Source of the DNA: Verrucomicrobiia bacterium | GTDB taxonomy: Bacteria > Verrucomicrobiota > Verrucomicrobiia > JAWXBN01 | Assembly: GCA_033764445.1 (NCBI GenBank) | Contig: JANRIZ010000013.1 | Location: 1 to 45,149, forward strand | Direction: 5' to 3' | Length of the DNA: 45,149 bases | Shown here: positions 1 through 43,751 of the stretch, piece by piece | Numbering within the stretch: the stretch's first letter is position 1 | Layout: each line of letters opens with the position of its first letter | The notes under the pieces: model-generated | The model's database searches: none | Seen by the model: only the letters and a program-made list of their open reading frames with translations | What the model was told of the DNA's origin: nothing | Program-made: the position numbers and the translations under genes

Positions 1-3000
1 CGGCAAAAGTCAGGTTGTTGGTGGTGATGTTCACATTGCCCGCCAGACGCAGTTCCCCGCTGTTGGCAAACCAGGTCTGGGCCCCGTTGCTCAAAATCAG
101 ATTGTTGCTGATGGTCTGGAAACTCGTGCTGTTCTGCACAATCCCCGTGCCGAGAAACCCGTTCATCGTAATGGCACTGCCGGTCAGATAATAATTGGTG
201 GTCACGGAATTGCTGAAAGTCAGGTTGCGGATATACCAGGCGGTGTTGACGACACTGTTGGTCCGCAGATTGGGGGTGGTGGCAAACACCACGCGCGCCG
301 TGCCGACATTGGTCGGGGACCGGTTTCCGACCCAGTTGTCGGCCGTTCCCCAGTTGTTATCCGTACCGCCACCGTCCCAGATCGAAAAGAAACCGACGTT
401 GGTGACCACGACATTGTTGCCGATGTTTGTGACCGTGCCAAACGAGGCGGACCCCAGCCAGTTGATCGTCCCCCAAGTCCCCCCGGGGGTGGCATCGGTC
501 TGGAAGATGACAAAACCCGTCGTGTCCAGCGGCTCGTAGTCAAATTGAAGGTTCAGGGACCCGCCGGCGGTCAGGGTGCCGAAAACCCGGTTGGAATCAA
601 ACAGCGAGGCACTGGAAAACTGAAAGAGTGAGGTGGAGCCCGACCCCATCCAGAGGCTGTCGGAAAAGGTCATGGAGCCGTACGTACTGACCGTGTTGTC
701 CTGGGTGGTCCCGGCGGAAATCACCCCATTGTTGGTGATCGCCCCGGAGGCCACGTCCACGGTGCCGTTGGTTCCAAAGAGGGTCCCGTTGGCGGCGACA
801 GTCAGTCCGTTGGTGAAACGATGGGTGCCGCCCATCATTCCCAGGGCCGCCGTCTGGGTGCCATCGCCGACGGTGTAAAGGGTCGTATTGTAGATGGTCC
901 CGTTGGTGCCGATGACCAGGGTGCCCCCGCCATGCTCCACATAGTTGGTCGGACGCACATGCAGGCTGCGGGCCGAGACATAGGCGCCACTTTGCAGCCG
1001 CAGCACCCCGTTGGTGTTGTCAGAATCGAAAGTATCTCTTCCCACGTTCAGGGCGTTGACATTGGTCATCGATGCCCCGTTGAGAACCGACAGGATGTTC
1101 GAGCGGGTCCCCCCGACCAGGGAACCCGAATTTCCGACCTGCACATTGCCCCCGCCGTTGTTCCAAACCGTCGAGGCCCCGTCCACCAGCACAAGATTGG
1201 AGCGGCTCTGACCGTAACCGATGGTCAGGCTTGTGGCATGCATGATTGCACCGTTGGAAAGCACAAGGCTGTTCCGGCTGGCGGCATCACGCCCCACCTC
1301 AACGGATGTGTTGGTAAAAACAGCCGAATCCGCAATGACCACCCGGTTGCTGTTGGGAAAGTAGTTGTTGAGCAGGCCGTACCCAACGGCCAGGACGCCC
1401 CCGGAATTGTCAAACACACTGCCGCTGCCGGCCACATACAGAAGGTTGGATTCCGAGGGTTGCTCGCCGACGGTGATTCCCACCGTCTTGTATTTGCCCC
1501 CATTGGTCACATAGAGGGTATTGTATCCGCCGAAAAAGTACCCGAGTTTTGTAAAACCGGAATTGGTAAAGGCCGCCCCATTGGCGACGGTCACCGTATT
1601 GGACAGGGCATGACTTGTGGAGAGACCCGATCCCACGTAGAAATTCCCGGTATTGCTCAGAAAAGTCCCCGTATTGAGAAGGGTCAGACGGGCATATTGT
1701 GAACTTTCCTTTCCAAGAAGCAGATCATTGGTTGAATAAATCCGGGCACCGTTGGTCGCAAGAAGTTCGGTTCCCACATCGTTTCCGAACCCGACGGTCA
1801 GGGTGTTGATGTTGCTGAGGGTGGCTGCATTGACAACAACCCGATTGCTCAGGGATACAGAGCCATCCGAATTGAATTTATGGCCGATATTCAAAAAGTT
1901 GTTCTGAAAATTGAACAGCGTCGTGCTGCCCTCCACCTGCAGGAGGTTGTAATCCGAGCGGTACCCGACCCGGACCCCCGAGGCCTGCACCAGCGCCCCG
2001 TTGCTCACGTACATGGAGTTGCTGACGGTATTGATCTCATATCCCACCCTCAGTTCCACCACATTGGTCAGGCGGCTGTTGTCGACAACCAGCACATTGC
2101 GCCCGTTTGCCGTATCCAACAGGTCAATCCATCCCACCGCCACGGTGCTTCCCCCGGCGTTCCAGGTCGAACCGCCCCGGAGAATGACGGCATTGCTGTA
2201 AAATCCGCGTGCTCCGATGTACAAACCGGTCGATTTGCCCACTGCACCATTGTCCAAAAGCAGCAGGTTCGAGGAACTGCCCGGCGAGCCCAGAAGATGA
2301 CTGCCCACCCACACGCCATTTTGATTGGAAAACACGGAGCCAGAGCCGGTCACCACCACCTTGTTGCTGCCGATGCTCGACCCGATATCCGTCCGGTTGA
2401 CGGCCACGACGCCTCCATTGCTCAAAAACAGGGACCCGCGGCTGTTGAGCAGGACATTGTCGTTCCAGTGCGTGATGGACCCCCCGTTGGTGACCACAAA
2501 GTTGGAATTGCTCACGATGGTGGAATAGGTGTTGAGCCCACCGTTCTGCCCCCAGTTGCCGGCACCCCGGATCACCAGAGTGCCATTGGTCGCACCGGTG
2601 ACCGTCAATGGAAGCGTATTCCCAAAAGCCACGTTGCTCAGAATCAGCATACCAGCATTCATCTGCCACGTCTGGGCTACGGAAAATCCAATCGGGGAAT
2701 TGATCGCCTGGGTGTTGGTGCTGTTATTGATGATGCCTCCCGAGCCGATCGTCAGATAAAAGGGCCCCCCTGAAGAATTGGTGGTCAGAAACGAACCGGC
2801 ATTGTTGCTGTAGGTCAGGGAATTGATGGACCAGTCAGCCCCGTGTGCATTGGTTCTTTGAACGGTCCCTGCAAATATGAAATTGGCGGTGCCATCATTG
2901 TTGGGCGCCACGTCCCCCACCCAGTTTCCGGCGGTCCCCAAAAAATTATCCGCACCGCCGCCGTCCCACGTTCCGGCAATGATTAAAACAGGGAAAAACC

Positions 3001-30444: not shown

Positions 30445-30518
30445 GCGGGTGTAGTTCAATGGTAGAACGGCAGCCTTCCAAGCTGCATACGTGGGTTCGA
30501 TTCCCATCACCCGCTCCA
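30445..30518 (+). tRNA. tRNA-Gly (anticodon TCC)
   Basis: GCGGGTG-TA-GTTCAATGGTAGAAC-G-GCAGC-CTTCCAA-GCTGC-ATAC-GTGGG-TTCGATT-CCCAT-CACCCGC-T-CCA folds as a cloverleaf with a 7-bp acceptor stem. CCA is encoded. Confidence 0.85.
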
Positions 30519-30661: not shown

Positions 30662-33600
30662 TCAGTCCCGGGCCGGCACGGTCCTTTTTTCCAGCCAGGA
30701 AAACATCAGATACACACACGGCACCACCACCAGGGTGAAAAGAGTCGACACCAGCACCCCTCCAATGATCGTGATGGCCATGGGAACACGCGTTTCCGCA
30801 CCCGGTGCCGTTGAAAAGGCCATCGGGACGGCCGCGGCAATCGTGGCGAGAGAGGTCATGAGAATGGGGCGAAGCCGGATGGGGCAGGCCTGCCGGAGCG
30901 CCTCCATCGCCCCCAGCCCGTGTGCCTCCCGCTGCTGGTTGGTGAATTCCACAAGCATGATGGAATTCTTTTTGACAATGCCCGCCAGCAGAATGATCCC
31001 GATGATGCTGTAGAGATTGAGGCTTTTGTTGAAAAGCATCAGGGTGATCAGGGCCCCGCTGATGCTGAAGGGCAGCGCCATGAGAACGGTCACGGGATGC
31101 ACAAAACTGTCAAACTGGCACGCCAGCACCATGTACGCCACCAGGATGCCCATCGCAAAAAGAAACAGCATCTGTCCCCCGGACTCCGCAAAAAGCCGCG
31201 ACCCGCCTTCCAGATTGAAGGTGTACCCCTCGGGCAGGACCTCGCGACTGATTTTTTCCGCCGCCGCCAATGCGGTGGCCTGGGACTTGCCCTCGGCAAT
31301 GTTGCCCTTGATGGAGATGGACTGCTGACGGTTGACGCGGTTGAGACTTTGCACGGTGGGTTTGACCTCGCTTTTGACGACACTGGTCAGCGGGATCAGT
31401 TCCCCGTACACATTGCGCACCTGCAATTTTTCCACATCCTCGGGCTTGAGCCGTTCCTCCTGTTGCAGACGCACACGCACATCATAACGCCTCCCCTCCT
31501 TGGTGAACTTTCCCTGCCGTACCCCGCCCAGCGCCGCCTGGATGGTCCGTCCAATTTCCTCCATGCTCACCCCGCGTGCGGCGGCGGCTTCGCGATCGGG
31601 AAAGATACGGAGTTCCGGCTGACCCTCCCGGTAGTTGGTGTCAAGGTCCGCGGTCAGTCCCGTGGCGGCGAGTTTCTCCTTGATCACCCCGGCCTTCTCC
31701 TTGAGCACCTGAAGACTGGGGCCGCGGAGGTTGAATTCCAACGGCTCGGCCCGGCGGGGGGTCAGTCCGCGCAGGTTGAAATCCAGGGGACGGATCCGCA
31801 CGCCCTTGATCTCGGCAAGGTCCTTGCGCAGGGCGGTCATGATCTGGGCCTGGGTGCGTTGACGCTGGTCCTTCTCCATGAGTTTGACGGCCATAAAGGC
31901 CTGGTTGGGAACACCGCTGAATCCCCCGACAAACGCGGTGAACCGTTCGATCTCGGGGATTTTTTTGATGACAGACTCGATCTCCTGCACCTTGGCCTGG
32001 GTGTAGGCCAGAGAGGATCCCACGGGCGTCTCAACCCCCAGGCGAATGAGGCTCTGATCCTGCGCGGGCATGAACTCCTTCCGGATCATGGGCATCAGCC
32101 CGAGGCTGAGCCCGAAAAACACCATCGACACCAGCACCACCCTCATGGGATGCGCCAGAGCCCACGTCAGAATTTCCCCGTAAAAATTCCTCCATTTGCC
32201 AAAGAGCCGGTCCAGGGCCCGCGTGAAGGCGTTGTCCTCCTCCCGGCGCATGAACCGCGAACAACGCATCGGGGTGATGGTGATGGCCTCCAGGAGCGAA
32301 AAGGCCACGGCCGCGGTCATGGCCACCCCGAACTGGAACAGAAATTTCCCGATGATGCCGCTGAGAAAAAACACCGGCAGAAAAATGGCCATCACCGCGA
32401 TGCTGGTGGCCACGGCGGCAAAGGTGATCTCACGCGCCCCCTCCCGCGCGGCGGTCATCCGGTCCTTGCCCATCTGAAAGTGGCGGACAATGTTTTCCAA
32501 AACCATGATCGCATCATCAACCACAATGCCGATGGAAAGGGCCAGGGCCAGCAGCGTGAACATGTTCAGGGAAAGCCCCATGAAATACAGGACGGTAAAC
32601 GTGCCAAAAATGGAGGTGGGGATCGACAAAAGCACATTGACCGAGGCGGTCCAGCTTCCGAGAAACAAAAAACATACCAGTCCCGTGACCAGCGCGGCCA
32701 CAACCAGTTCCTTGAGCGTGAATTTCACCGATTGTTCCGAAAATCGTGTGAAATCCACGTTGACCTGGATGTACAGATCCTGGGGCAGGGTCTTCTTGAT
32801 CTGTTCAAGCTTCGCCCGCACGCGTTTGCTCACCTCCACCTCGTTTTCGCCCCGTTGTTTGGCGATCCCCAGGGCGACGCCCGGATTTCCCGAGGCCCGG
32901 GCGATGGTCCGCACCTCGGCCAGTCCGTCCTCCACACGCGCAACGTCGCGCAGACGTATCCGGGTGTTGTATACGGGCTGGTTCCCGCGGCGGGTGATCA
33001 GGATGTCGCCCACCTGCTCGGGGGTCATCGCCTCCCCCATGGTCCGCAGATTGATCTCGTTTTTCTCGTTTTCCAGGTAACCGGAGGCGATTTCCGCATG
33101 CTCCAGCTGCAGCGCCCGCAACACATCCTGGACGGTCAGCTCATACTGTTTGAGTTTTTCCCCATCCACATGCACCCGCAGATTCCGCTCGGTGAATCCC
33201 GCGGTGCGCACCTCTCCGACACCTGGCACCACCTGGAACTGGTCCTTGATGTACAATTCCACATACTCGATCACATCCCGGGCCGGACGGTCCCCACCCA
33301 CGCCGATCCACATGATGGGGTCCGCATCGGGATTCTGCTTGCGCACGGTCGGCGGATCCACACCCAACGGAAGATTGATCTGGCTGAGGGCCGATTGAAC
33401 ATCCTGCACCGCGGCGTCCACATCCCGGTTGATCTCAAAATCCAGATCCACCGTGGCCTGACCCTGCCGGATGCTCGACCGCATTTCCCTGAGGCCCTCG
33501 ACACTGATCACCCGCTGTTCAATCTGGTCGACCAACTCGGCTTCCATGATCTCCGGGGCGGACCCTTCCCAAACGGTGGAAATGGTCACGGTTGGAAAAT

Positions 33601-33721
33601 CCACGTTGGGAATCTGGGCCAGTCCGAGGCGTCCGAGGGAAATGGCCCCGAAAATGATCAGCGCAAACATCAGAATCCACGCAAAAACAGGCCGTTTGAT
33701 GGAGAGATCGGAAAGAGTCAT
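30662..33721 (-). CDS. RND-family efflux permease (HAE1/AcrB-like), 1019 aa
   Basis: 12-TM architecture with two large periplasmic loops. Conserved blocks include 'GIVVDDAIMVLENI' and 'AILLAGIVKKNSIMLVEF'. No membrane-fusion or outer-membrane-factor gene is adjacent. Confidence 0.9.
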   Translation of the reverse strand: MTLSDLSIKRPVFAWILMFALIIFGAISLGRLGLAQIPNVDFPTVTISTVWEGSAPEIMEAELVDQIEQRVISVEGLREMRSSIRQGQATVDLDFEINRDVDAAVQDVQSALSQINLPLGVDPPTVRKQNPDADPIMWIGVGGDRPARDVIEYVELYIKDQFQVVPGVGEVRTAGFTERNLRVHVDGEKLKQYELTVQDVLRALQLEHAEIASGYLENEKNEINLRTMGEAMTPEQVGDILITRRGNQPVYNTRIRLRDVARVEDGLAEVRTIARASGNPGVALGIAKQRGENEVEVSKRVRAKLEQIKKTLPQDLYIQVNVDFTRFSEQSVKFTLKELVVAALVTGLVCFLFLGSWTASVNVLLSIPTSIFGTFTVLYFMGLSLNMFTLLALALSIGIVVDDAIMVLENIVRHFQMGKDRMTAAREGAREITFAAVATSIAVMAIFLPVFFLSGIIGKFLFQFGVAMTAAVAFSLLEAITITPMRCSRFMRREEDNAFTRALDRLFGKWRNFYGEILTWALAHPMRVVLVSMVFFGLSLGLMPMIRKEFMPAQDQSLIRLGVETPVGSSLAYTQAKVQEIESVIKKIPEIERFTAFVGGFSGVPNQAFMAVKLMEKDQRQRTQAQIMTALRKDLAEIKGVRIRPLDFNLRGLTPRRAEPLEFNLRGPSLQVLKEKAGVIKEKLAATGLTADLDTNYREGQPELRIFPDREAAAARGVSMEEIGRTIQAALGGVRQGKFTKEGRRYDVRVRLQQEERLKPEDVEKLQVRNVYGELIPLTSVVKSEVKPTVQSLNRVNRQQSISIKGNIAEGKSQATALAAAEKISREVLPEGYTFNLEGGSRLFAESGGQMLFLFAMGILVAYMVLACQFDSFVHPVTVLMALPFSISGALITLMLFNKSLNLYSIIGIILLAGIVKKNSIMLVEFTNQQREAHGLGAMEALRQACPIRLRPILMTSLATIAAAVPMAFSTAPGAETRVPMAITIIGGVLVSTLFTLVVVPCVYLMFSWLEKRTVPARD

Positions 33722-33888: not shown

Positions 33889-33978
33889 GGACAGGTGGCT
33901 GAGCGGTTGAAGGCACCTGACTCGAAATCAGGCGTAGGGGTAACTCTACCGTGGGTTCAAATCCCACCCTGTCCGCCA
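33889..33978 (+). tRNA. tRNA-Ser (anticodon CGA), long variable arm
   Basis: GGACAGG-TG-GCTGAGCGGTTGAAGGC-A-CCTGA-CTCGAAA-TCAGG-(variable arm CGTAGGGGTAACTCTACC)-GTGGG-TTCAAAT-CCCAC-CCTGTCC-G-CCA. Confidence 0.85.
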
Positions 33979-34038: not shown

Positions 34039-36150
34039 ATGCTTCATCCGATCCTCGCCCTCACTCTGCCCCCTCTTCTCACCATCGCCCTGTACGCGGG
34101 GGTGGCCATTGTCGGTATCATTGTCCTCTACGTGGTGATGCGGATTGTGGGGTTCAAATACCACAACGTGGACCAGGGCCAGGCGCTCATCCGCAACGGG
34201 CTGGGGGGAACCAGCGTGTCCTTCAGCGGGATGACCGTCTGGCCGATCATCCACCGTCTGGAGTACATGGATATCACCGTCAAACGCGTCGAAATCGACC
34301 GGCGGGGCGCCACGGGCCTGATCTGCAAGGATAATCTCCGGGCTGATATCAAGGTGGCGTTTTTTGTGCGTGTCGAAAAGGAGTCCGAAAACGTCAAACG
34401 TGTCGCCCAATCCCTCGGGTGCGTGCGTGCCTCCGACGAGCAGGCACTCATCGACCTCTTTGACGCCAAGTTTTCCGATGCCCTCAAGGCCGCCGGACGC
34501 CAGTTCGATTTTGAGGAATTGCTCAACTCCCGCGAGGCCTTCCGCCAGAAGGTCAAGGAATCCATCGGCACGGATTTGAACGGCTACGTCCTGGATGATG
34601 CCTCCATCGACCACCTCGAGCAAACCAAGGTGGATTTGCTCGACCCGGATAACATCCTCGACTCCGAGGGCATCAAAAAAATCACCGAACGCACGGCCAT
34701 CCAGAAAATCCGCGCCAACGAAATCAACCGCGACCGCGAAAAAACAATCACCCAGAAGGATATCGAAACACGCGAGGCGGTCCTCGAACTCAACCGCCAG
34801 CTCTCCGAGACGGAGGAAAAACAGAAGCGCGAGGTCGCCTCCATCAAGGCCCGCGAGGAATCCACCACCCTCCAGGTCCAGCAGGAGGAACGGCTCAAGG
34901 GCGAAAAAGCCCGCATCCTCACCGAGGAGGAGGTCCAGGTCGCCGAGGAAAACAAAAACCGCCAGATTCTCATCGCCCAACGCAACAAGGAACGGGCCGA
35001 CGCGATCGAACAGCAACGCGTCCAGAAAGACCGCGACCTTGAAGCCACCGAACGCGAGAAGGTGGTCGCCCTCGCCTCGATCGAACGGGACAAAATCGTG
35101 GAAACCGAACGCAAGTCGATCCAGGAGGTCATCCGCCAGCGGGTCATGGTCGAACGCACGGTCGTCGAGGAACAGCAACGCATGAAGGACACGGAGGCTT
35201 TTGCCGGCGCGGAACGCGAACGCAAGGTCAAGATGGTCGATGCGGAAGCGGCCGCCGAACAGCAGCTCGTCAAGGAAATCAAGGCCGCGGAAGCCGCCAA
35301 AAAGGCCGCGGAATTGTCCGCCGAACAGGAATTCTACAAGGAGGTCAAACTCGCCGAAGCCCGCAAAAAGGCGGCGGAACTGGATGCGGAACAGAAAATT
35401 GTCTCCGCCCGTGCGGAACAACTGGCCGCGGTGGAGCTGGCCGAGGGCAAAAAGAAACTCGCCGCCGGGATCACGGCCGAACAGGCGGCCCCGGGTCTGG
35501 CCGAAGTCAACATCATGGAAGCCAAATCCGCCGCCCTCGAAAAACAGGGCACGGCGGAGGCCCGGGTCCTGGACCTGAAGTTCAAGGCGGAGGCCGACGG
35601 CATCACCCGCAAGGCGGAGGCCATGAAACTCCTCCACGAGGCGGGCAAGGAACACGAGGAATTCAAACTGGAACTGGCCACCCAGAAGGACATCGCCCTG
35701 GCGCGGATCGCCGTCCAGAAGGACATCGCCTCCAGCCAGGCTCTGGTGGTCGGGGAAGCCCTCAAAAACACACGGGTCGACATCGTCGGCGGCGAAACCG
35801 AATTCTTCGACCGCATCGTCGGGTCCATCACGGCGGGCAAGGCCCTCGACCGCATGGTCGACAACAGCCGCACGCTCACCACGGTCCGCAACACCTTCTT
35901 CAAGGGGGATGCCGACACCTTCCGTCAGGAAGTGCGAAAACTGGTGGATAGCTTCGGCTTTTCGCCGGAGGAACTCAAAAATCTCAGCATCACCGCGGCC
36001 CTGACGCAAATGGCGGCGGACTCGGAGGAAGCCCCGCTCAAGTCACTGGTCAAAAAACTCCAGCGCTTTGCCAAGGGCGCGGGCCTGGGGGCGCAAAAGC
36101 TCGACCAGTTCCTTGCGGACCTGGATGAGTCCAAAGTCTCGCGCAAATAA
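34039..36150 (+). CDS. Flotillin-family SPFH/Band-7 protein (703 aa) with N-terminal TM anchor and long Ala/Glu/Lys-rich coiled coil
   Basis: It has an N-terminal hydrophobic anchor 'LLTIALYAGVAIVGIIVLYVV'. The SPFH core is 'QGQALIRNG...VWPIIHRLEYMDITVKRVEI...LICKDNLRADIKVAFFVRV'. EA-rich heptad repeats follow: 'EAAKKAAELSAEQEFYKEVKLAEARKKAAELDAEQK'. Confidence 0.85.
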   Translation: MLHPILALTLPPLLTIALYAGVAIVGIIVLYVVMRIVGFKYHNVDQGQALIRNGLGGTSVSFSGMTVWPIIHRLEYMDITVKRVEIDRRGATGLICKDNLRADIKVAFFVRVEKESENVKRVAQSLGCVRASDEQALIDLFDAKFSDALKAAGRQFDFEELLNSREAFRQKVKESIGTDLNGYVLDDASIDHLEQTKVDLLDPDNILDSEGIKKITERTAIQKIRANEINRDREKTITQKDIETREAVLELNRQLSETEEKQKREVASIKAREESTTLQVQQEERLKGEKARILTEEEVQVAEENKNRQILIAQRNKERADAIEQQRVQKDRDLEATEREKVVALASIERDKIVETERKSIQEVIRQRVMVERTVVEEQQRMKDTEAFAGAERERKVKMVDAEAAAEQQLVKEIKAAEAAKKAAELSAEQEFYKEVKLAEARKKAAELDAEQKIVSARAEQLAAVELAEGKKKLAAGITAEQAAPGLAEVNIMEAKSAALEKQGTAEARVLDLKFKAEADGITRKAEAMKLLHEAGKEHEEFKLELATQKDIALARIAVQKDIASSQALVVGEALKNTRVDIVGGETEFFDRIVGSITAGKALDRMVDNSRTLTTVRNTFFKGDADTFRQEVRKLVDSFGFSPEELKNLSITAALTQMAADSEEAPLKSLVKKLQRFAKGAGLGAQKLDQFLADLDESKVSRK

Positions 36151-36201
36151 CAACCCCCATGATCGGCGGGTGGAAAACCTCCCTCCCCTGCCCCCCTCCC
36201 C

Positions 36202-39200
36202 ATGGCCAATCATCAGGAGTCCCCTCCCCCGGTGTCTGCAACGGCTCCCGCCCTTGAAAGCGGCACCTACGAGATCATCCGGTCCCGGCTGCATGAACAG
36301 GCGACGCGTCTGCAGGACCGGCTCGGCTCCCTCAATGCCGCCCGCCGCGAAACCTTCGGTTCGATCCCGTTTGAATTGCTGGCCACCGAACGGGTGCTCA
36401 CGGAAAATAATTGCGTGCCACGGGATATGGCCGTTTTCGGACCCAGCCGGTTTGTCTTCGGGTACAATGTCCACATCGGCCTGAAATCCGAGACGCGGAT
36501 TGCGGATGTATTTTCGCTGTACGAATACCGGGGACGGCAATTCCATCCCCTGCCGGTTTCCTGGCTGGAAGACCCGAAATTTGCAGGGGATTTCAGGGAC
36601 CTCTACAAGTATTACAAGGAAACGGTCTTCTCCCATTTCCGGAACAAGGCGCCCTACCTGTACATGGTCTTCCAGGTGGGGAAAAATGTCTCGGATGTCA
36701 AGGCCTTCAAATGGCAGTGTGGTCCGGGCGAACCGAAATATCTGGGCAATCGTTTCGACCACGAAATCACCTTCCCGCCCCAGCACGATTTCGAATGGAA
36801 ACGCGCCACGCGGGACCTCCACCGCAAGGGGGCCTTCCCCCACGTCTCGATTGAGGACCGGGTGTTTGTTGAAACCACCGGCGGCGACCTGACCATCAAG
36901 GTTGAAAACAATACGGACATCGGCGAGGGCATTTACTCCGAACCCGTCTCCAACCGGGATCAGACCCTCGATGACGCGGAAATCCTCTACGCGATCGCGG
37001 GACACCTGGTCCTTTTGAAAATCCGCCCCTTCCAGGAAAACGACCACCGGTATCTGGTTTTCAACGGAAAAACCAACCAGGTCCGCCGCCTGGACAGCAT
37101 CGCCTCCAGCTGTGTCCTGCTGCCGGACAGCCAGGGGATCATTTTCCCGGGCGGGTATTTCCTCCAGACGGGTGAATCCAAAACCTTCGACCTGCCCACC
37201 GGGGACATGATCTTCAAAAAAAAGATCACCTCCCCCAACGGCGAGGACACGCTGTACACCTTCTTCAACCGGGCCGCGGGGCTGTTCATCCTTTTTTCGT
37301 ACAACCGCATCGAACAAACCGTCAAAACCCCGATCCTCTGCAACGGATTTTCCGTGTTTGAAAACGGGGAGACAATCCTCTTCCGATGCGACGAGGAACC
37401 CCGCAAAAACCACGCACTCCAAATCTGGCGCACGCCCTTCACCCATGCGGACGCAGCGCCAGCGGTCCCGGCGGACTCCTTTCTGGGCAAAATCGGCAAT
37501 GCGGGCGTGGTGGCCTGCATGACCGACTGCCATGCCCTCCTGAACCTCCTCAAGAAGGAGGATTCCTATGCCAACCTCTATCTGGACGTGGTCCGTCTGA
37601 CCACCGACCTCATCGACAACCATTTCTGGATCGGGGACGCCGCGGCCTTCAACCTTCGCGAACCGCTGGAAGGAATCCGCAAGGCGGGACGTTCGGCCAT
37701 CGACGAATTTGAAAAGGTCACCGGCATCCGCAAGTCCACCTCCCGGGAAACGGCCCGGCTCCAGTCCCAATCCGCGGCCCTGACGTCCAGAATCAGCCAG
37801 ACGATTCCCGAATCGATTGACGTGTTTGTGGACTTTCTCTCGGCCCTGCGCCGGTTGCGCGGGGAAATCATCTCCGCCCGGGACCTGCGTTATGCCGACC
37901 TGCCCCTGCTCGACTCCCTCGAAAGGGAGGTGGTCGCCCAGTTGGACAGGCTCTCCGCCGAATGTGTGGTGTTTCTGATCAAACCCGAGGCGCTCAACCC
38001 ATACCGCACCCGGGTGGAAGCCGAAAAAAACGCACTCGATGCGGTCACAAAATCCGCGGAAGCCGACGGGCAGGACAAACGGCTGGCCGCCATCTCCTCC
38101 GAAATGGATATGCTCATCGAGATTGTCGGCAATCTCAAGATCGAGGACCCCACCCAGACCACAGCCATCATTGACTCGATTTCCACGCTGTACGCGGGCC
38201 TCAACCAGATCAAGTCCTCCCTCAAAAACAAACGCACGGAACTGGCGGTCACCGAGGGTTCGGCGCAATTTGCGGCCCAGGTCAAGCTGCTCAACCAGAC
38301 GGTCACCCACTACATCGACCTGTGCGATTCACCGAAAAAATGCGATGAGTTGCTGACCCGGCTGATGGTGCAGGTCGAGGAACTGGAGGGGCGTTTCTCG
38401 GAGGTGGATGCCTACGTGGAGGAACTCTCGGTCAAACGCGAGGAAATCTACAACGCCTTTGATGCCCGCAAAATCCAGCTCAACGAATCCCGCAACAAAC
38501 GGTGCGCCGCCCTGCAAGCCTCCGCCGACCGGGTGTTGACGGGGGTCAAAAACAAGGCGGAGTCCCTCAAAAATCTCGATGAAATCAATTCCTACTTCGC
38601 CTCCGATCTGATGGTGGACAAGGTCCGGGACCTGATCACCCAACTGACCGGACTCGAGGACAGTGTCCGCGCCGATGAAATCCAAAGCCGTCTCAAGACG
38701 ATCCAGGAGGGGGCTGTCCGTCAGCTCAAGGACCGTCTGGAACTTTTTGTCGACGGCCAGAATGTGATCCAGCTGGGTCCACACCGCTTCTCGGTCAATA
38801 CCCAGCCGCTGGATCTGACGGTGGTCCCACGTGACGGAGACATGTATTTCCATCTTTCCGGCAGCAACTTTTTTGAAAAGATCACCGACGCCGGTTTCAC
38901 GACCACCCGCGAGGTTTGGAGCCAGGAAATCGTCTCGGAAACAGAAACGGTGTACCGTGCCGAATATCTGGCCCATCTCATTTTTCTGGAAGCCCTCGCG
39001 GCTCCTCCACAGAAACTGGAGGAATGGTTGTCGCTGGAAACCGAACCCTTTGCGGAACGGGTCCGCCAGTTTGCCGCCACGCGGCTGACCGAAGGATACG
39101 TCAAGGGGGTGCATGATCTGGATGCGGCGGCAATTCTCCGTCCCCTGATGACGATCCACCGGGACCTGAATCTGCTGCGTTATCCGCCCCGGGCCCGGGC

Positions 39201-41655
39201 CCTGGCCCGGCTTTTTTGGAGCCAATGGACGGAGGAGGAAATCCGACAGCCCCTGACTCTCAAGATCAAAAGTCACGGCACCTTGTCCCGTTTTTTTGCG
39301 GGGCAAACCCCTCCCCGGGAATACATCAGGGCTCTGGCCGGTCCCCTGGCGCAATTTGCGGAAAAATCGGCCCTTTTTCCACCGGCCCTGGCCCCGCTGG
39401 CCGCCGAATATCTTTTTGTGGAGGTTTCCACACGGGACCGTTTCGCCGTCAGCCGTCCGGCCAGTCAGCTGGCCACCGATTTTTTTCATCATCTGACCCA
39501 CCACCTTTTTGTCTCCGAATTCGACAAGGCACTTGAATCGGCGGGCCGGGACAAAATCACCGCCTTTGAAATCGCCCGGGATTGGCTGGCGGGCTTCATG
39601 ACGGCCTCCTCCGTCGGACCGGAGACCGAAATGCTCGAGGAGGCGGCGGTGCTCATTCTCAATCGCGACGCTCCCCCCCCCGAGGTGATCGACGCGACGG
39701 CCACGGCCAGTCTGTCGAACCTCCACGGAAACCATCCCCGGATCACCGGCGGAAACTATGTGCTCCAATACCATGAATTCACGGGACGTCTCGACGATTT
39801 CACCAGGACGCGGGTGCCACTTTTTGAGCGTTATTCCCAGGCCAAGAAACAACTCATCGAAGTCCGGCGCAAAGAACTCCGGCTTGGGGAATTCAAACCG
39901 AAGGTTCTCAGTTCCTTCACCCGCAACCGGCTTGTCGACCGGTTCTACCTTCCGCTGGTGGGGGCAAACCTCGCCAAACAAATCGGGGAGGCGGGGGAAA
40001 ACAAACGCACGGACCTGATGGGCCTGCTGCTGCTCATCTCCCCGCCGGGCTACGGCAAAACAACACTCGTGGAATATCTCGCGTTCCGGCTGGGACTGAC
40101 CTTTGTCAAAATCAACGGCCCGGCCCTGGGCCACGACGTGACCTCCCTGGACCCCGAGGAGGCTCCCAATGCCGCGGCCCGGGAGGAAATCAAACGTCTG
40201 AACCTGGCATTGGAAATGGGCGACAATGTCATGCTCATCATCGACGACATCCAGCATTGCAACCCGGAATTCCTCCAGAAATTCATCTCCCTGTGCGACG
40301 CCCAGCGGAAAATCGAGGGTGTCTACAACAACCAGCCCCGCACCTACGACCTGCGCGGACGCAAGTTTGCCGTGGTCATGGCGGGAAATCCGTACACAGA
40401 AAGCGGGGACAGGTTCAGGATCCCGGACATGCTCGCCAACCGGGCGGATATCTACAACCTCGGTGACATTGTCGGGCGCCATTTCCAAGTCTTCAAATGG
40501 AGTTACCTCGAAAACGCGGCCACCTCCAATCCCTATCTCCGTCGGCTGGCGGGACGAAACCATGATCTCCATGCTGTCATCCAAATGGCGGAAACCGGCT
40601 CGGCAGAGGGCGTGGAGCTGGAGGGAAAATATTCCCCCGAGGAAACCGGTGAAATGGTCGCGGTCATGAAAGCCCTCCTCCGGATCCGGGATGTCGTCCT
40701 GCGCATGAACCAGGAATACATTGCCTCGGCCGCCCAGGCGGAGGACTACCGGACCGAGCCCCCGTTCAAATTGCAGGGCTCCTACCGCAATATGAACCGG
40801 CTGGCCGAAAAAGCGCTTCCGGTCATGAACGATTCCGAAATCCAGGCCCTGATCGACGAGCATTACCGCAACGACGCCCAAACCCTGACCACCGGCGCGG
40901 AATCAAACCTCCTCAAATACAAGGAAATGCGGGGCACCCTGACCGCGGAGGAATCCGCCCGATGGAATGAGATCAAATCCACCTACAAACGCAAATTGCT
41001 CTTCTCCGAGGCGGACCCCGGGGACCCGGTTGCACGCGTGACGGTGCAACTGTCGGCCTTTGCCCAGGGCCTGGATCAGATCCGTCAGGCACTCTCGGAG
41101 GTGGCTCAAACCCAGCGGGAACGTCCCGACCAACTGGAAACAGCCCTCAGCAGTCACACTCTCGAAAGCCTGCGCCACATGCTGGGGGAACTGCGGACGA
41201 CCATCGAAACATCGAGCCATCCCCCAGTCCCTCCCCTGCCGCGAATGACAGGGTCTCCGGCGGTCACCCTGCTCAACGAGGATGGGACCCCTGCCCCCGC
41301 CTCCCTCGCCTCCCACTCCCCGCCGGTTGTCGATCATCAACCCACGGCGGCCCCCCCTGCGTCAAACCCCGACTACCAGATTGAGGTGCGTTACAGTGTG
41401 CCGGAGGCGTTTACCCAGATCATCCAGCACCAGTTTGCCCTGATGCAGGCCTGGTCCCAAAGCGCGTTTGCCTCCCAAAATCTGCGCTCCAAGGAGATGC
41501 AGGACTTGCACGCCCAGGTGGCGAGGCTCTTGGATGACTACCATCAAATCACTGGCTGGTTGAAAACCGCTCCTCAAACCCCTTTTCCACAAGACATTAC
41601 ATCTGCCGAAACAGGGTCGGCCCTGAAAAAGCCCAAAAAGAGAAAACCGGAGTAA
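36202..41655 (+). CDS. Giant (1817 aa) multidomain protein with a MoxR/AAA_5-type AAA+ ATPase module at residues ~1270-1420; function unknown
   Basis: A single uninterrupted frame starts 51 bp after the flotillin stop. Walker A is 'LLLLISPPGYGKTTLVEYLA' (DNA about 40038-40064). Walker B is 'VMLIIDDIQHCN' (about 40227-40256). A sensor-like motif is 'GNPYTESGDRFRIPDMLANRADIYNL'. There is no signal peptide or TM at the N-terminus. Several predicted coiled-coil stretches are present. The C-terminus has a Pro-rich segment and a basic tail 'KKPKKRKPE'. Confidence 0.85.
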   Translation: MANHQESPPPVSATAPALESGTYEIIRSRLHEQATRLQDRLGSLNAARRETFGSIPFELLATERVLTENNCVPRDMAVFGPSRFVFGYNVHIGLKSETRIADVFSLYEYRGRQFHPLPVSWLEDPKFAGDFRDLYKYYKETVFSHFRNKAPYLYMVFQVGKNVSDVKAFKWQCGPGEPKYLGNRFDHEITFPPQHDFEWKRATRDLHRKGAFPHVSIEDRVFVETTGGDLTIKVENNTDIGEGIYSEPVSNRDQTLDDAEILYAIAGHLVLLKIRPFQENDHRYLVFNGKTNQVRRLDSIASSCVLLPDSQGIIFPGGYFLQTGESKTFDLPTGDMIFKKKITSPNGEDTLYTFFNRAAGLFILFSYNRIEQTVKTPILCNGFSVFENGETILFRCDEEPRKNHALQIWRTPFTHADAAPAVPADSFLGKIGNAGVVACMTDCHALLNLLKKEDSYANLYLDVVRLTTDLIDNHFWIGDAAAFNLREPLEGIRKAGRSAIDEFEKVTGIRKSTSRETARLQSQSAALTSRISQTIPESIDVFVDFLSALRRLRGEIISARDLRYADLPLLDSLEREVVAQLDRLSAECVVFLIKPEALNPYRTRVEAEKNALDAVTKSAEADGQDKRLAAISSEMDMLIEIVGNLKIEDPTQTTAIIDSISTLYAGLNQIKSSLKNKRTELAVTEGSAQFAAQVKLLNQTVTHYIDLCDSPKKCDELLTRLMVQVEELEGRFSEVDAYVEELSVKREEIYNAFDARKIQLNESRNKRCAALQASADRVLTGVKNKAESLKNLDEINSYFASDLMVDKVRDLITQLTGLEDSVRADEIQSRLKTIQEGAVRQLKDRLELFVDGQNVIQLGPHRFSVNTQPLDLTVVPRDGDMYFHLSGSNFFEKITDAGFTTTREVWSQEIVSETETVYRAEYLAHLIFLEALAAPPQKLEEWLSLETEPFAERVRQFAATRLTEGYVKGVHDLDAAAILRPLMTIHRDLNLLRYPPRARALARLFWSQWTEEEIRQPLTLKIKSHGTLSRFFAGQTPPREYIRALAGPLAQFAEKSALFPPALAPLAAEYLFVEVSTRDRFAVSRPASQLATDFFHHLTHHLFVSEFDKALESAGRDKITAFEIARDWLAGFMTASSVGPETEMLEEAAVLILNRDAPPPEVIDATATASLSNLHGNHPRITGGNYVLQYHEFTGRLDDFTRTRVPLFERYSQAKKQLIEVRRKELRLGEFKPKVLSSFTRNRLVDRFYLPLVGANLAKQIGEAGENKRTDLMGLLLLISPPGYGKTTLVEYLAFRLGLTFVKINGPALGHDVTSLDPEEAPNAAAREEIKRLNLALEMGDNVMLIIDDIQHCNPEFLQKFISLCDAQRKIEGVYNNQPRTYDLRGRKFAVVMAGNPYTESGDRFRIPDMLANRADIYNLGDIVGRHFQVFKWSYLENAATSNPYLRRLAGRNHDLHAVIQMAETGSAEGVELEGKYSPEETGEMVAVMKALLRIRDVVLRMNQEYIASAAQAEDYRTEPPFKLQGSYRNMNRLAEKALPVMNDSEIQALIDEHYRNDAQTLTTGAESNLLKYKEMRGTLTAEESARWNEIKSTYKRKLLFSEADPGDPVARVTVQLSAFAQGLDQIRQALSEVAQTQRERPDQLETALSSHTLESLRHMLGELRTTIETSSHPPVPPLPRMTGSPAVTLLNEDGTPAPASLASHSPPVVDHQPTAAPPASNPDYQIEVRYSVPEAFTQIIQHQFALMQAWSQSAFASQNLRSKEMQDLHAQVARLLDDYHQITGWLKTAPQTPFPQDITSAETGSALKKPKKRKPE

Positions 41656-41720
41656 AGCGGTCCTGTTTTATTTAAAAAAGTCCTGTTGAATATTTCACAA
41701 AAAGTCCTAGCCTACGGTCC

Positions 41721-42293
41721 ATGCTACCGCTGATCCTCTCCCTTCTTCTGGGCATTATCGCCTCCTCTTTTTTTGAATGGATTCTCCACCGTTTTGTCAT
41801 GCACAAACCCGTCGGGCCTTTCCGGTATGCCTTCGAAGCCCATGCCATCATCCATCATCAGGTCTTCAGTTCGGACCATACCTATCATTTGATGCGCGAT
41901 GAGGATAAAAAGACCATTCCCATGGCCTGGTGGAACGGACCGGTCCTGATCCTCTGCAACAGTGTCCCTTTCCTCCTCTTTGCCGTTTTCACCGGCTACT
42001 GGACCGTCTGGTTGGGGGGATTGATCGCAGGCTGCCTGTACTACGGGACCTATGAATACATCCACTGGTGCATGCACCTGCCCAAAGGCCGCAGGATTGA
42101 GCAACCATGGGTGTACCGTCGGCTCAATGCACACCATCTCCTGCACCATCGCTACATGCACAAAAACTTCAATGTCGTTCTCCCCCTGGCGGATTTCTGC
42201 CTGGGCACCCTGGTCCTCCGCTCAAAAATTCCCTTCCCCCAACCGGTGGGTCCCGCCGTTCCCAACGTCCAACCGCGAAAAAAGGCCGCCTGA
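41721..42293 (+). CDS. Fatty-acid hydroxylase / sterol-desaturase-superfamily small membrane protein (190 aa)
   Basis: Three histidine boxes, 'HRFVMH', 'HAIIHHQVF' and 'HHLLHHRYMH', sit in a 4-TM scaffold. Confidence 0.75.
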   Translation: MLPLILSLLLGIIASSFFEWILHRFVMHKPVGPFRYAFEAHAIIHHQVFSSDHTYHLMRDEDKKTIPMAWWNGPVLILCNSVPFLLFAVFTGYWTVWLGGLIAGCLYYGTYEYIHWCMHLPKGRRIEQPWVYRRLNAHHLLHHRYMHKNFNVVLPLADFCLGTLVLRSKIPFPQPVGPAVPNVQPRKKAA

Positions 42294-42369
42294 TTTTCGC
42301 AAAATTCTTGTCCCGAGGCCCGTCCGTCCGTAAAGTGTGGACTGATCCTCGAATCCCGGGTTGACCCCT

Positions 42370-43209
42370 ATGTTCAAAAAAGTCCTTCTGTGCACCGACG
42401 GCTCGGAATACTCCCAGATCGCCATGGAGACGGCCTTCTACCTGGCCCGCAAATTTTCCGCGGATGTGGATGCGCTCCACGTCATTGAAAACAAGGTGCT
42501 TGACGGCCCCCTTTTTGCGGACCTTTCCGGTGCTTTCGGAGCCACGCCCTATCAGGATTTCTACTCGCAGCTCAAGGAACTCTACGAGCAACGCGCCAAA
42601 ACCACGCTCGACCTGGTTGAAAAAACCGCCCACTCGGTTTTTGTCAAATGTGACACCTTCCGGGAACAGGGGGTCCTGGCCGAGGTGGTGGCACGGTATG
42701 AGGCCAACGCCGATCTGGTGGTACTCGGACGCAACGGGGAAAATGCCAGACATCGCAGCGATCTGATCGGCCATTCCGTCGAGGACATCCTGCGCCGTTC
42801 CTCCAAACCCTGCCTGATCACCCTCAACCGTTTCCATGAATTCAAAAAGGCGGTCATCGCCTTTGATGGAAGCGAAAACTCCCGCCACGCCCTGCGGGCC
42901 GGACTTGAACTCTCCAAAAACCTGCCGCTGGCACTGACCCTCATCGCCGTGGATACCGGCAATCCGGAGGCCGCCAGTGATGCCCTGGCCTACGCTGTTC
43001 GGGAGGCCCAAAAAGCGGGAGTCCCCGTGGACGAACAGGTTCTGACCGGCAATGCCGACGATGAAATCACCGGCTACTGCAAAAAACGCGGCGTTGACCT
43101 CATTATCATGGGGGCCTACGGCCACACCCGCATCCGCGAATTCATCCTCGGCAGCACCACCAACAGCGTCCTGATCAAAAGTCCCGTCCCCGTGATGCTT
43201 GTCCGGTAG
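42370..43209 (+). CDS. Tandem universal stress protein (two UspA domains)
   Basis: Two repeats of the USP fold. The first begins 'KKVLLCTDGSEYSQIA'. The second begins 'KKAVIAFDGSENSRHAL' and carries the C-terminal ATP-binding motif 'GVDLIIMGAYGHTRIREFILGSTTNSV'. Confidence 0.8.
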   Translation: MFKKVLLCTDGSEYSQIAMETAFYLARKFSADVDALHVIENKVLDGPLFADLSGAFGATPYQDFYSQLKELYEQRAKTTLDLVEKTAHSVFVKCDTFREQGVLAEVVARYEANADLVVLGRNGENARHRSDLIGHSVEDILRRSSKPCLITLNRFHEFKKAVIAFDGSENSRHALRAGLELSKNLPLALTLIAVDTGNPEAASDALAYAVREAQKAGVPVDEQVLTGNADDEITGYCKKRGVDLIIMGAYGHTRIREFILGSTTNSVLIKSPVPVMLVR

Positions 43210-43295
43210 ATGCTCCGACAGCTTTGCTGCCCCATTGTTCAGGGGCCGATCGAAAAAATCCACTTTCCGGCTTGACCCTTCACAATCCATGATGT

Positions 43296-43327
43296 ATTGT
43301 ACTTTCAGAATAGATTGAAAGTACAAT
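43296..43327. promoter_or_regulatory. Perfect 11-bp inverted repeat 'ATTGTACTTTC-n10-GAAAGTACAAT' overlapping a sigma70-like promoter (TTGACC at 43272) 20 bp upstream of ORF 43347
   Basis: Read directly from the sequence. It is AT-rich within a GC-rich context. Confidence 0.35.
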
Positions 43328-43346
43328 ATATAAAACGAATATCCCT

Positions 43347-43751
43347 ATGACATACGCCGTCACCAACTACCTCCTCTACCTCGCCCTGAGCGTGGGACTG
43401 ACCATCTGGGTGGCCCGCACCCTGCACAAAAACGGCCGCATCTTCCTGGTCGACAGCTTCCAGGGGAATGAGGACCTGGCCGACTCGGTCAATCACCTCC
43501 TGGTGGTGGGGTTTTACCTGATCAATATCGGATACGTCTCGCTGGCTCTCAAATACGGGCCCACACCCCACGATACGAAGGAACTGATCGAGTGTCTGAG
43601 CACCAAGGTCGGCTGGGTTTTGCTGATCCTCGGCGTCATGCACTTTTTCAACCTTCATCTCTTCAACAAAATGAGGAAAAAGAATCTGGACGTCACAACA
43701 ATGCCCCCTGTTATTCCCGCCGGATATATCAACCGTCAATCCAACCCCTGA
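43347..43751 (+). CDS. Small polytopic membrane protein (134 aa), hypothetical
   Basis: Three or four hydrophobic helices ('YLLYLALSVGLTIWVA', 'LLVVGFYLINIGYVSLAL', 'VGWVLLILGVMHFF'). Its stop lies 5 bp before the next gene. Confidence 0.55.
   Translation: MTYAVTNYLLYLALSVGLTIWVARTLHKNGRIFLVDSFQGNEDLADSVNHLLVVGFYLINIGYVSLALKYGPTPHDTKELIECLSTKVGWVLLILGVMHFFNLHLFNKMRKKNLDVTTMPPVIPAGYINRQSNP

Follow-up and report, generated by a model that had tools for sequence, protein, structure and literature searches.

The window, a 45,149-nucleotide stretch of contig JANRIZ010000013.1 from a Verrucomicrobiia bacterium (assembly GCA_033764445.1), carries four genes on its plus strand which encode a flotillin, a giant ATPase of 1817 amino acids (aa), a fatty-acid hydroxylase-like protein and a tandem universal stress protein (USP), with gaps of 51, 65 and 76 bp between them (Table 1). 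The last gap is counted from the likely ATG of the fourth gene at 42370; its listed open reading frame (ORF) begins with a TTG at 42361 and ends at 43209. An earlier sequence-only reading of this DNA had described these genes with their coordinates, strand and spacing, the tRNA-Ser upstream and a palindrome downstream, and all were found where it placed them. On homology and gene order, the first two genes (34039-41655) represent a reduced form of a widespread operon in which a yqiJ (NfeD-type) gene, a flotillin gene and the giant gene follow one another. Both genes are real, because each has thousands of homologues. The names given to the two products by NCBI are 'SPFH domain-containing protein' and 'DNA repair ATPase'.

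Table 1. Features of the flotillin-giant locus and its borders; nucleotide positions are those of the window.
Feature	Residues (aa)	Position (nt)	Strand	Basis or remark
tRNA-Ser (anticodon CGA)		33889-33978	+	ARAGORN; upstream boundary, 60 bp before gene 1
Gene 1, YqiK-type flotillin (SPFH2 group)	703 in all	34039-36150	+	Homology to E. coli YqiK
N-terminal hydrophobic membrane anchor of flotillin	4-42	34048-34164	+	Kyte-Doolittle; aligns with the N-terminal transmembrane segment of YqiK
SPFH domain, then long E/A/K-rich coiled coil	~43-200, then ~200-500	34165-35538	+	YqiK alignment
Family-specific C-terminal region of flotillin	~501-703	35539-36147	+	Conservation; no YqiK likeness
Pyrimidine-rich 51-bp intergenic spacer		36151-36201	+	Between flotillin and giant genes
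Gene 2, giant soluble ATPase (DUF3686 + DUF7902 + AAA+)	1817 in all	36202-41655	+	Pfam
N-terminal helix of giant	22-52		+	AlphaFold model
Beta-propeller domain (core of DUF3686)	58-410	36373-37431	+	AlphaFold, Foldseek
Long helical rod of spectrin-repeat-like helical bundles (~420 residues; holds DUF7902)	427-848	37480-38745	+	
Small beta-domain (aa 855-893) and conserved helical middle region	855 to ~1239	38764-39918	+	Models
Single AAA+ module	~1240-1465	39919-40596	+	Pfam, motifs, Foldseek, model
Walker A, SPPGYGKT	1280-1287	40039-40062	+	
Walker B, LIIDD	1345-1349	40234-40248	+	DD where DE is canonical
Sensor-1 N1396; NRAD arginine R1414; beta-hairpin ahead of sensor 1	1396; 1414; 1370-1383			
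Helical lid after AAA+ core				AlphaFold model
Disordered proline-rich linker	1671-1732	41212-41397	+	pLDDT < 50
C-terminal helices (conserved), then polybasic tail KKPKKRKPE	1735-1790, then tail			Model, sequence
AT-rich 65-bp spacer with repeated AAAAAGTCCT / GTCCTGTT motifs		41656-41720	+	End of conserved unit
Gene 3, His-box fatty-acid hydroxylase-like membrane protein	190 in all	41721-42293	+	Pfam FA_hydroxylase, 35.6 bits (cut-off 31)
Gene 4, tandem universal stress protein		42370-43209	+	Pfam Usp, two domains

The neighbourhoods of giant homologues were compared in a scan of one genome per species. At least 576 species genomes, spanning eight or more phyla, contain relatives of the giant, and 80 loci were kept, from Planctomycetota, Verrucomicrobiota, Bacteroidota, Desulfobacterota, Calditrichia, Hydrogenedentota, Omnitrophota, Kiritimatiellota and others. 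Adjacency of a flotillin gene was counted over the 63 loci with >2.3 kb of upstream sequence. In 59 of these, spread over at least eight phyla, a flotillin gene lies directly upstream of the giant gene on the same strand. Reverse look-up from two flotillin homologues on long contigs led to a giant gene downstream in both cases. The giant keeps ~50% identity from phylum to phylum, and each species representative yielded one locus. These counts bear out the pairing of flotillin and giant put forward in the sequence-only reading: the two genes occur together among giant homologues and are a true functional pair. A terminator or promoter separating the two genes, which that reading had named as a point that would tell against the pairing, was looked for in the spacer at 36151-36201, and no terminator-like or promoter-like site was found there.

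Clustering of the ORFs in these neighbourhoods revealed a third conserved gene, of ~227 aa, directly upstream of the flotillin gene. Its product matches Pfam YqiJ_N and E. coli YqiJ (hhalign probability 97.7, E 2.4e-12), and a hidden Markov model (HMM) search located this YqiJ (NfeD-type) gene upstream of flotillin in 57 of the 60 loci testable for it. The gene is absent in L050, L082 and L083, the last two being the closest relatives of the window. No NfeD/YqiJ-like ORF was detected in the window either by tblastn with 49 family members or by searching its six-frame translation with an HMM at maximum sensitivity, in agreement with the sequence-only reading, and the tRNA-Ser occupies the spot held by the yqiJ-like gene in most relatives. 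The further suggestion that the giant replaces NfeD as the flotillin partner did not survive the comparison: since YqiJ is also present in 57/60 loci, the ATPase is an addition to the usual NfeD-flotillin pair. Judged by these gene orders, the usual unit is yqiJ-flotillin-giant, and the window represents a rare sublineage with a two-gene form from which the adjacent YqiJ gene has been lost. A seven-locus cluster of 727-aa minus-strand ORFs was rejected as a gene, being the antisense shadow of the flotillin gene.

In Bacteroidota and some Proteobacteria the operon is longer. A CesT/Tir-like gene and pspA extend it upstream in seven Bacteroidota loci, and the annotated order in Hymenobacter sp. 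DG25B is Tir chaperone, PspA, DUF1449, flotillin and 'DNA repair ATPase'. On the megaplasmid pQBR103 of P. fluorescens SBW25 (L086, 84437-97641), a co-oriented cluster of ten genes encodes YjfI, PspA, rhomboid, DUF2491, DUF350, DUF1190, glutathionylspermidine synthase, YqiJ-like, SPFH and 'DNA repair ATPase' proteins, in that order; this cluster joins a polyamine-type Psp operon to the YqiJ-like, SPFH and giant genes. PspA is adjacent to the giant operon in ~8 of the 80 loci. In the window, tblastn with the proteins of L046 detected no PspA or CesT-like gene.

By sequence comparison, the product of gene 1 is a genuine YqiK-type flotillin. It aligns with E. coli YqiK from the transmembrane (TM) anchor on through the SPFH domain and the coiled coil (BLASTP, 2e-44, 30% identity, 491 aa). 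When an alignment of 41 sequences of the flotillin family was compared with YqiK by hhalign, a probability of 100 (E 8e-42) was obtained with the SPFH region covered, and the residue-by-residue flotillin alignment matches YqiK 7-472. The putative anchor is the sole segment of the protein with a Kyte-Doolittle mean >= 1.6. Source databases call its homologues, of which there are >6800, flotillin, YqiK or SPFH. No model of Pfam (Band_7 and Flot included) or NCBIfam matches the gene 1 protein, even at E = 10. A single-sequence search of the PDB with the 703-aa protein gave no SPFH match, and the family profile touched just the coiled coil of QmcA there, weakly (E 8.6e-4). The Band_7 and Flot models have a blind spot for the giant-associated flotillin subfamily. 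Among the homologues listed for this subfamily (P0121-P0240), 120 of 120 carry no precomputed Pfam domain.

The C-terminal region of the flotillin (~200 aa) has no similarity to the C-terminus of YqiK (hhalign probability 3.8%). Among the giant-associated subfamily, conservation is 0.56-0.80 in the blocks of aa 501-650 and 0.33-0.43 over aa 651-700. This region is a candidate docking region for the giant. The SPFH2 proteins of E. coli yqiJ-yqiK and B. subtilis yuaF-floT (yuaG) (PMC2636767) offer the comparison. YqiK is homologous to the window flotillin over the TM, SPFH and coiled-coil parts, and YqiJ, an NfeD-type protein that partners YqiK (Hinderhofer et al. 2009, PMC2636767), is homologous to the upstream gene of the window's relatives. 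Unlike the window, the E. coli yqiJK locus has no adjacent giant ATPase gene. The window flotillin differs from YqiK in its family-specific C-terminus, in being missed by Pfam Band_7 and Flot, and in the absence of the YqiJ partner.

The giant, with >5000 homologues, is matched in Pfam by DUF3686 (PF12458, aa 37-475, 3.9e-174), by DUF7902 (PF25472, aa 596-680, 1.3e-25) and, at aa 1276-1400, by an AAA/AAA_5 module (AAA 31.1 bits; AAA_5 25.9 bits, cut-off 22). No hydrophobic segment (Kyte-Doolittle mean >= 1.6 over 19 residues) was found in it, and hence no TM segment. Two AlphaFold models were obtained, with a mean predicted local distance difference test (pLDDT) of 76 and 74 and a predicted template modelling score (pTM) of ~0.45. 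The sequence-only reading had taken the giant for a cytoplasmic protein with a MoxR/AAA_5-type ATPase and long coiled coils. The lack of a TM segment, the AAA_5 match and the helical rod of the model agree with this, although the generic AAA model scores above AAA_5.

In the model, aa 58-410 are all-beta with block-mean pLDDT mostly 66-92 and a loop of low values (37-57) at ~aa 211-260. Foldseek with this domain returned 43 PDB matches at E <= 1e-3, nearly all of them beta-propellers, including DCAF1 WD40 (target TM-score, TMt, 0.42), prolyl oligopeptidase, thiocyanate dehydrogenase and LRRK2 WD40. DUF3686 occurs essentially just at the N-terminus of 1600-1930-aa proteins and, at 50% identity, counts 730 representatives in a set of 1.84 billion proteins. 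Behind the rod, the invariant residues of the small beta-domain and middle region include F863, N866, Q868 and H884. The top Foldseek E-values for the model of aa 1-1010 belong to eukaryotic IFT-A, HOPS Vps16/18 and nucleoporins; this likeness in the model is probably a generic propeller-plus-helices resemblance, curious as it is in a bacterium of the PVC group (Planctomycetota-Verrucomicrobiota-Chlamydiota). A protocoatomer-like giant was rejected, as the helical part is spectrin-like and not a solenoid and the TM-scores are just 0.08-0.17.

Among the giants encoded at the loci, Walker A was counted in 77, the sensor-1 motif MAGNP in 76, the Walker B motif DDIQH in at least 72 and L.NRAD in 69, and the Walker A, Walker B, sensor-1 and arginine motifs are near-invariant both among these 77 giants and in the giant alignment. 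Because the motifs are kept across the giants, their sequences argue for a working nucleoside triphosphatase (NTPase). The AAA+ half gave weak Foldseek matches to RuvB, ClpB-NBD2, CbbQ, NorQ and MCM (E ~7e-3). The best target TM-scores were those of CbbQ2 (0.50) and NorQ (0.51), with RuvB and ClpB ranking similarly. The giant resembles the MoxR class (CbbQ, NorQ, RavA) in its AAA_5 match, an 'AGNP...IPDML.NRAD'-like motif and the pre-sensor-1 hairpin; it is unlike that class in the DD of its Walker B, in being ~six times larger, in its propeller and rod, and in the weak Foldseek E-value. No VWA/MIDAS partner gene was present among the neighbours whose domains were examined, and across the loci only the flotillin and YqiJ families recur widely. 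Since a search of the PDB with the profile of the giant family gave Walker A-level similarity alone, there is no solved structure for any relative of the giant. Variants of the architecture exist: the homologue P0060 also bears ankyrin-repeat Pfam domains. At L084 (9357-14501), which lies on a contig of 740 kb, gene calling splits the giant into four successive ORFs (101, 645, 698 and 301 aa), reflecting either frameshifts from assembly errors or a decaying copy.

An operon of this type has been described computationally. Ravi et al. (mSystems 2024, PMC11237479; preprint 2020) reported a CesT/Tir-PspA-YqiJ/YuaF-band-7/flotillin-'beta-propeller + coiled-coil + AAA+ ATPase' operon, with the neighbourhood of Dokdonia donghaensis ANH61663.1 as prototype and the same gene order in their supplementary table. 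More widespread abbreviated operons lack PspA and still list YqiJ, and a role in sub-membrane assembly and dynamics was suggested (PMC11237479). As in the window, a flotillin gene encoding a TM segment, an SPFH domain and a coiled coil stands directly upstream of a giant gene encoding a propeller, a coiled coil and an AAA+ module, in the same order and orientation. Unlike the window, the published operon has the CesT/Tir-PspA dyad and a 3TM gene of the YqiJ/YuaF type. The window pair is a reduced example of this operon type. From the matching architecture and the identical operon order in Bacteroidota loci, we infer that the giant belongs to the Dokdonia donghaensis ATPase family. The statement of the sequence-only reading that no flotillin-AAA-giant pairing has been characterised is therefore overtaken on the computational side by the 2024 description; it stands for experiment, as no experimental study of the flotillin-giant operon was found in the searched literature. 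Searches on DUF3686, on the flotillin-'DNA repair ATPase' operon and on pQBR103 with PspA returned nothing relevant, and a 2026 survey of Pseudomonas SPFH proteins leaves the ATPase unmentioned.

Taken together, genes 1 and 2 probably make up a two-gene operon in which the soluble giant ATPase would act on or with the assembly of the YqiK-type flotillin in membrane maintenance. Beyond the homology, the architecture, the synteny, the conserved ATPase motifs and the link to psp genes, we infer the following steps. The flotillin would form an oligomeric platform on the cytoplasmic side of the inner membrane, in the manner of other SPFH proteins. The giant would probably assemble into a ring oligomer with its propellers carried on the spectrin-like rods, and would dock on the flotillin, possibly via the propeller and the family-specific C-terminal region of the flotillin. 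ATP would then be spent to assemble, remodel or extract platform proteins in a Psp-type maintenance of the membrane. HflK/C-FtsH, in which an SPFH cage organises an AAA+ machine (PMC13220708, PMC13086221), shows that an SPFH assembly can work with an AAA+ hexamer at the inner membrane; the parallel is by analogy and not by homology. FtsH is anchored in the membrane and is a protease of the classical AAA+ clade, whereas the giant is a soluble protein from another AAA+ clade and lacks a protease domain. The B. subtilis pspA-ydjGHI operon, as cited in PMC9239133 and PMC7619361, ties PspA genetically and functionally to an SPFH protein, the flotillin-like YdjI, which brings PspA to the membrane; it differs from the window in having no giant ATPase, another SPFH subfamily and other partner genes.

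Several observations weigh against this interpretation. The giant occurs with no flotillin gene within 10 kb in 4 of the 63 loci (L037, L056, L058 and L059), and in several loci unrelated genes (AbiEii, a PD-(D/E)XK nuclease, an ABC transporter) stand between flotillin and giant. The link to Psp holds for this organism by extension only, because neither a PspA nor a YqiJ gene is present in the window. The Walker B of the giant reads DD in place of the canonical DE, leaving its predicted hydrolysis rate uncertain, and confidence in the giant models is moderate (pLDDT ~74-76, pTM ~0.45). Physical contact between flotillin and giant would have to be presumed, the pair being known here from its genes.

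The interrupted junctions imply that tight translational coupling is not required, because unrelated genes break the flotillin-giant order there. The inserts encode an AbiEii toxin (L050, 8085-9383), a PD-(D/E)XK nuclease (L038, 9501-9920) and a DUF5687 protein with an ABC ATPase (L045, 7355-9920). The flotillin-less loci are from Bacteroidota (L037, L056, L058) and Desulfobacteraceae (L059). A 675-aa ORF upstream of the L037 giant is of flotillin size and was rejected as a flotillin, since it encodes a tetratricopeptide repeat protein.

A bolder version of the two-gene interpretation is put forward tentatively. The giant might be an ATP-driven remodeller of bacterial sub-membrane scaffolds, a ~1.2-MDa hexamer sitting on the flotillin (SPFH) cage via the family-specific C-terminal region of the flotillin and assembling or taking apart that cage, or PspA polymers drawn to it. 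If this were so, bacteria would have a functional counterpart of Vps4/ESCRT or of FtsH in HflKC, and the YqiJ-less window would show that flotillin and ATPase are the minimal working unit.

The giant could instead be mainly a remodelling ATPase for the ESCRT-III-like PspA, a functional analogue of Vps4, with the flotillin as a mere membrane platform. In the seven Bacteroidota loci, in Hymenobacter and on pQBR103 the operon is led by PspA and a CesT/Tir-like gene; ESCRT-like ATP-dependent remodelling has been put forward for PspA-AAA+ associations (Ravi et al., PMC11237479), and according to a 2025 review bacteria appear to be without a Vps4-like ATPase for PspA. Flotillin is the tighter partner, with adjacency in 59/63 loci against ~8/80 for PspA, and because PspA is adjacent in so few loci, the PspA-centred role is plausible yet less likely, and on balance doubtful. 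In addition, an MIT-like domain was not detected in the giant, and its AAA+ module is like those of the PS1-hairpin/MoxR clades and not of the classical Vps4 clade.

A function of the pair in anti-phage defence or conflict, sensing envelope damage, is improbable. It would suit a large gene with an NTPase next to a tRNA gene, the AbiEii and PD-(D/E)XK genes now and then inserted in the operon, and the copies on some megaplasmids. However, PADLOC run on the four window proteins gave just sub-threshold P-loop matches, to mad8 (E 6e-4) and IetA (E 3e-3), no phage copy of the giant was found, and no nuclease or other effector domain was found with Pfam. The identity of ~50% across phyla, the one locus recovered per species representative and the flat GC content across the region also speak against such a role. 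A genomic-island origin, weighed given the adjacent tRNA, was set aside on the flat GC content, no search for mobility genes having been made.

The sequence-only reading had joined all four genes into one membrane-lipid/stress module. Its assignments of genes 3 and 4 as a hydroxylase and a double Usp protein were supported by Pfam (Table 1), and the genes are co-oriented with short gaps, the hydroxylase being a membrane enzyme and the USPs stress proteins. The module itself is very unlikely: homologues of the hydroxylase and USP genes were present in 0 of 82 related loci, the two closest relatives included, and for this reason no four-gene module is recognised. In one of these two relatives an unrelated ABC transporter gene follows the giant gene, in the other an unrelated TMEM164-like gene, and ORF clustering revealed no gene family recurring downstream of the giant in >5 loci. 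On this gene-neighbourhood evidence, the hydroxylase and USP genes are chance neighbours outside the conserved system. Because the 65-bp spacer ahead of them is AT-rich with repeated motifs, separate regulation of the downstream genes is suggested, and the spacer is probably a regulatory region of its own. The direct repeats at 41653-41708 comprise AAAAAGTCCT twice, 24 bp apart, and TAAAGCGGTCCTGTT / TAAAAAAGTCCTGTT, 20 bp apart. The sequence AAAAAAGTCCT recurs at the beginning of the USP coding sequence (42375-42385), and the spacer repeats with this copy may be a regulatory motif shared by the two downstream genes.

Least credible is a DNA repair ATPase, as the databases name the giant: the Pfam description of DUF3686, the name given by the NCBI Prokaryotic Genome Annotation Pipeline (PGAP), a weak RuvB_N similarity and a LexA-family regulator beside the Hymenobacter operon point that way, but the RuvB likeness is confined to ~45 residues round Walker A (19.3 bits, cut-off 27), no DNA-binding, helicase or nuclease domain was detected in the giant, no repair gene recurs in the clustered neighbourhoods, the constant partners are membrane proteins among membrane-stress genes, and the literature search on DUF3686 found no paper. 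The name 'DNA repair ATPase' is without support.

The two-gene interpretation bears on what bacterial flotillins do. A conserved ~1800-aa ATPase that is almost always beside a flotillin is a candidate for an energy-dependent flotillin partner, and the system is both widespread and mis-annotated. Thousands of 'DNA repair ATPase' entries named without evidence, and a flotillin partner missed by Band_7, are annotation errors worth fixing. Copies of the giant exist in tractable hosts, namely P. fluorescens SBW25 (pQBR103), Proteus mirabilis, Streptomyces and Deinococcus. The window itself adds just a reduced example, YqiJ-less and PspA-less, which helps to define the minimal conserved core.

The borders of the locus hold further features. 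The palindrome downstream is a 16-nt inverted repeat at 43292-43307 / 43316-43331 (ATGTATTGTACTTTCA / TGAAAGTACAATATAT, 94% complementary), situated between the USP gene and the next plus-strand ORF (43347-43751) and flanked by promoter-like hexamers on both strands. It is probably the operator of a local regulator and has no relation to the flotillin pair. On the other side, a minus-strand gene for an AcrB-family resistance-nodulation-division (RND) efflux pump (30662-33721) lies directly upstream of the tRNA-Ser, and a tRNA-Gly(tcc) is located at 30445-30518.

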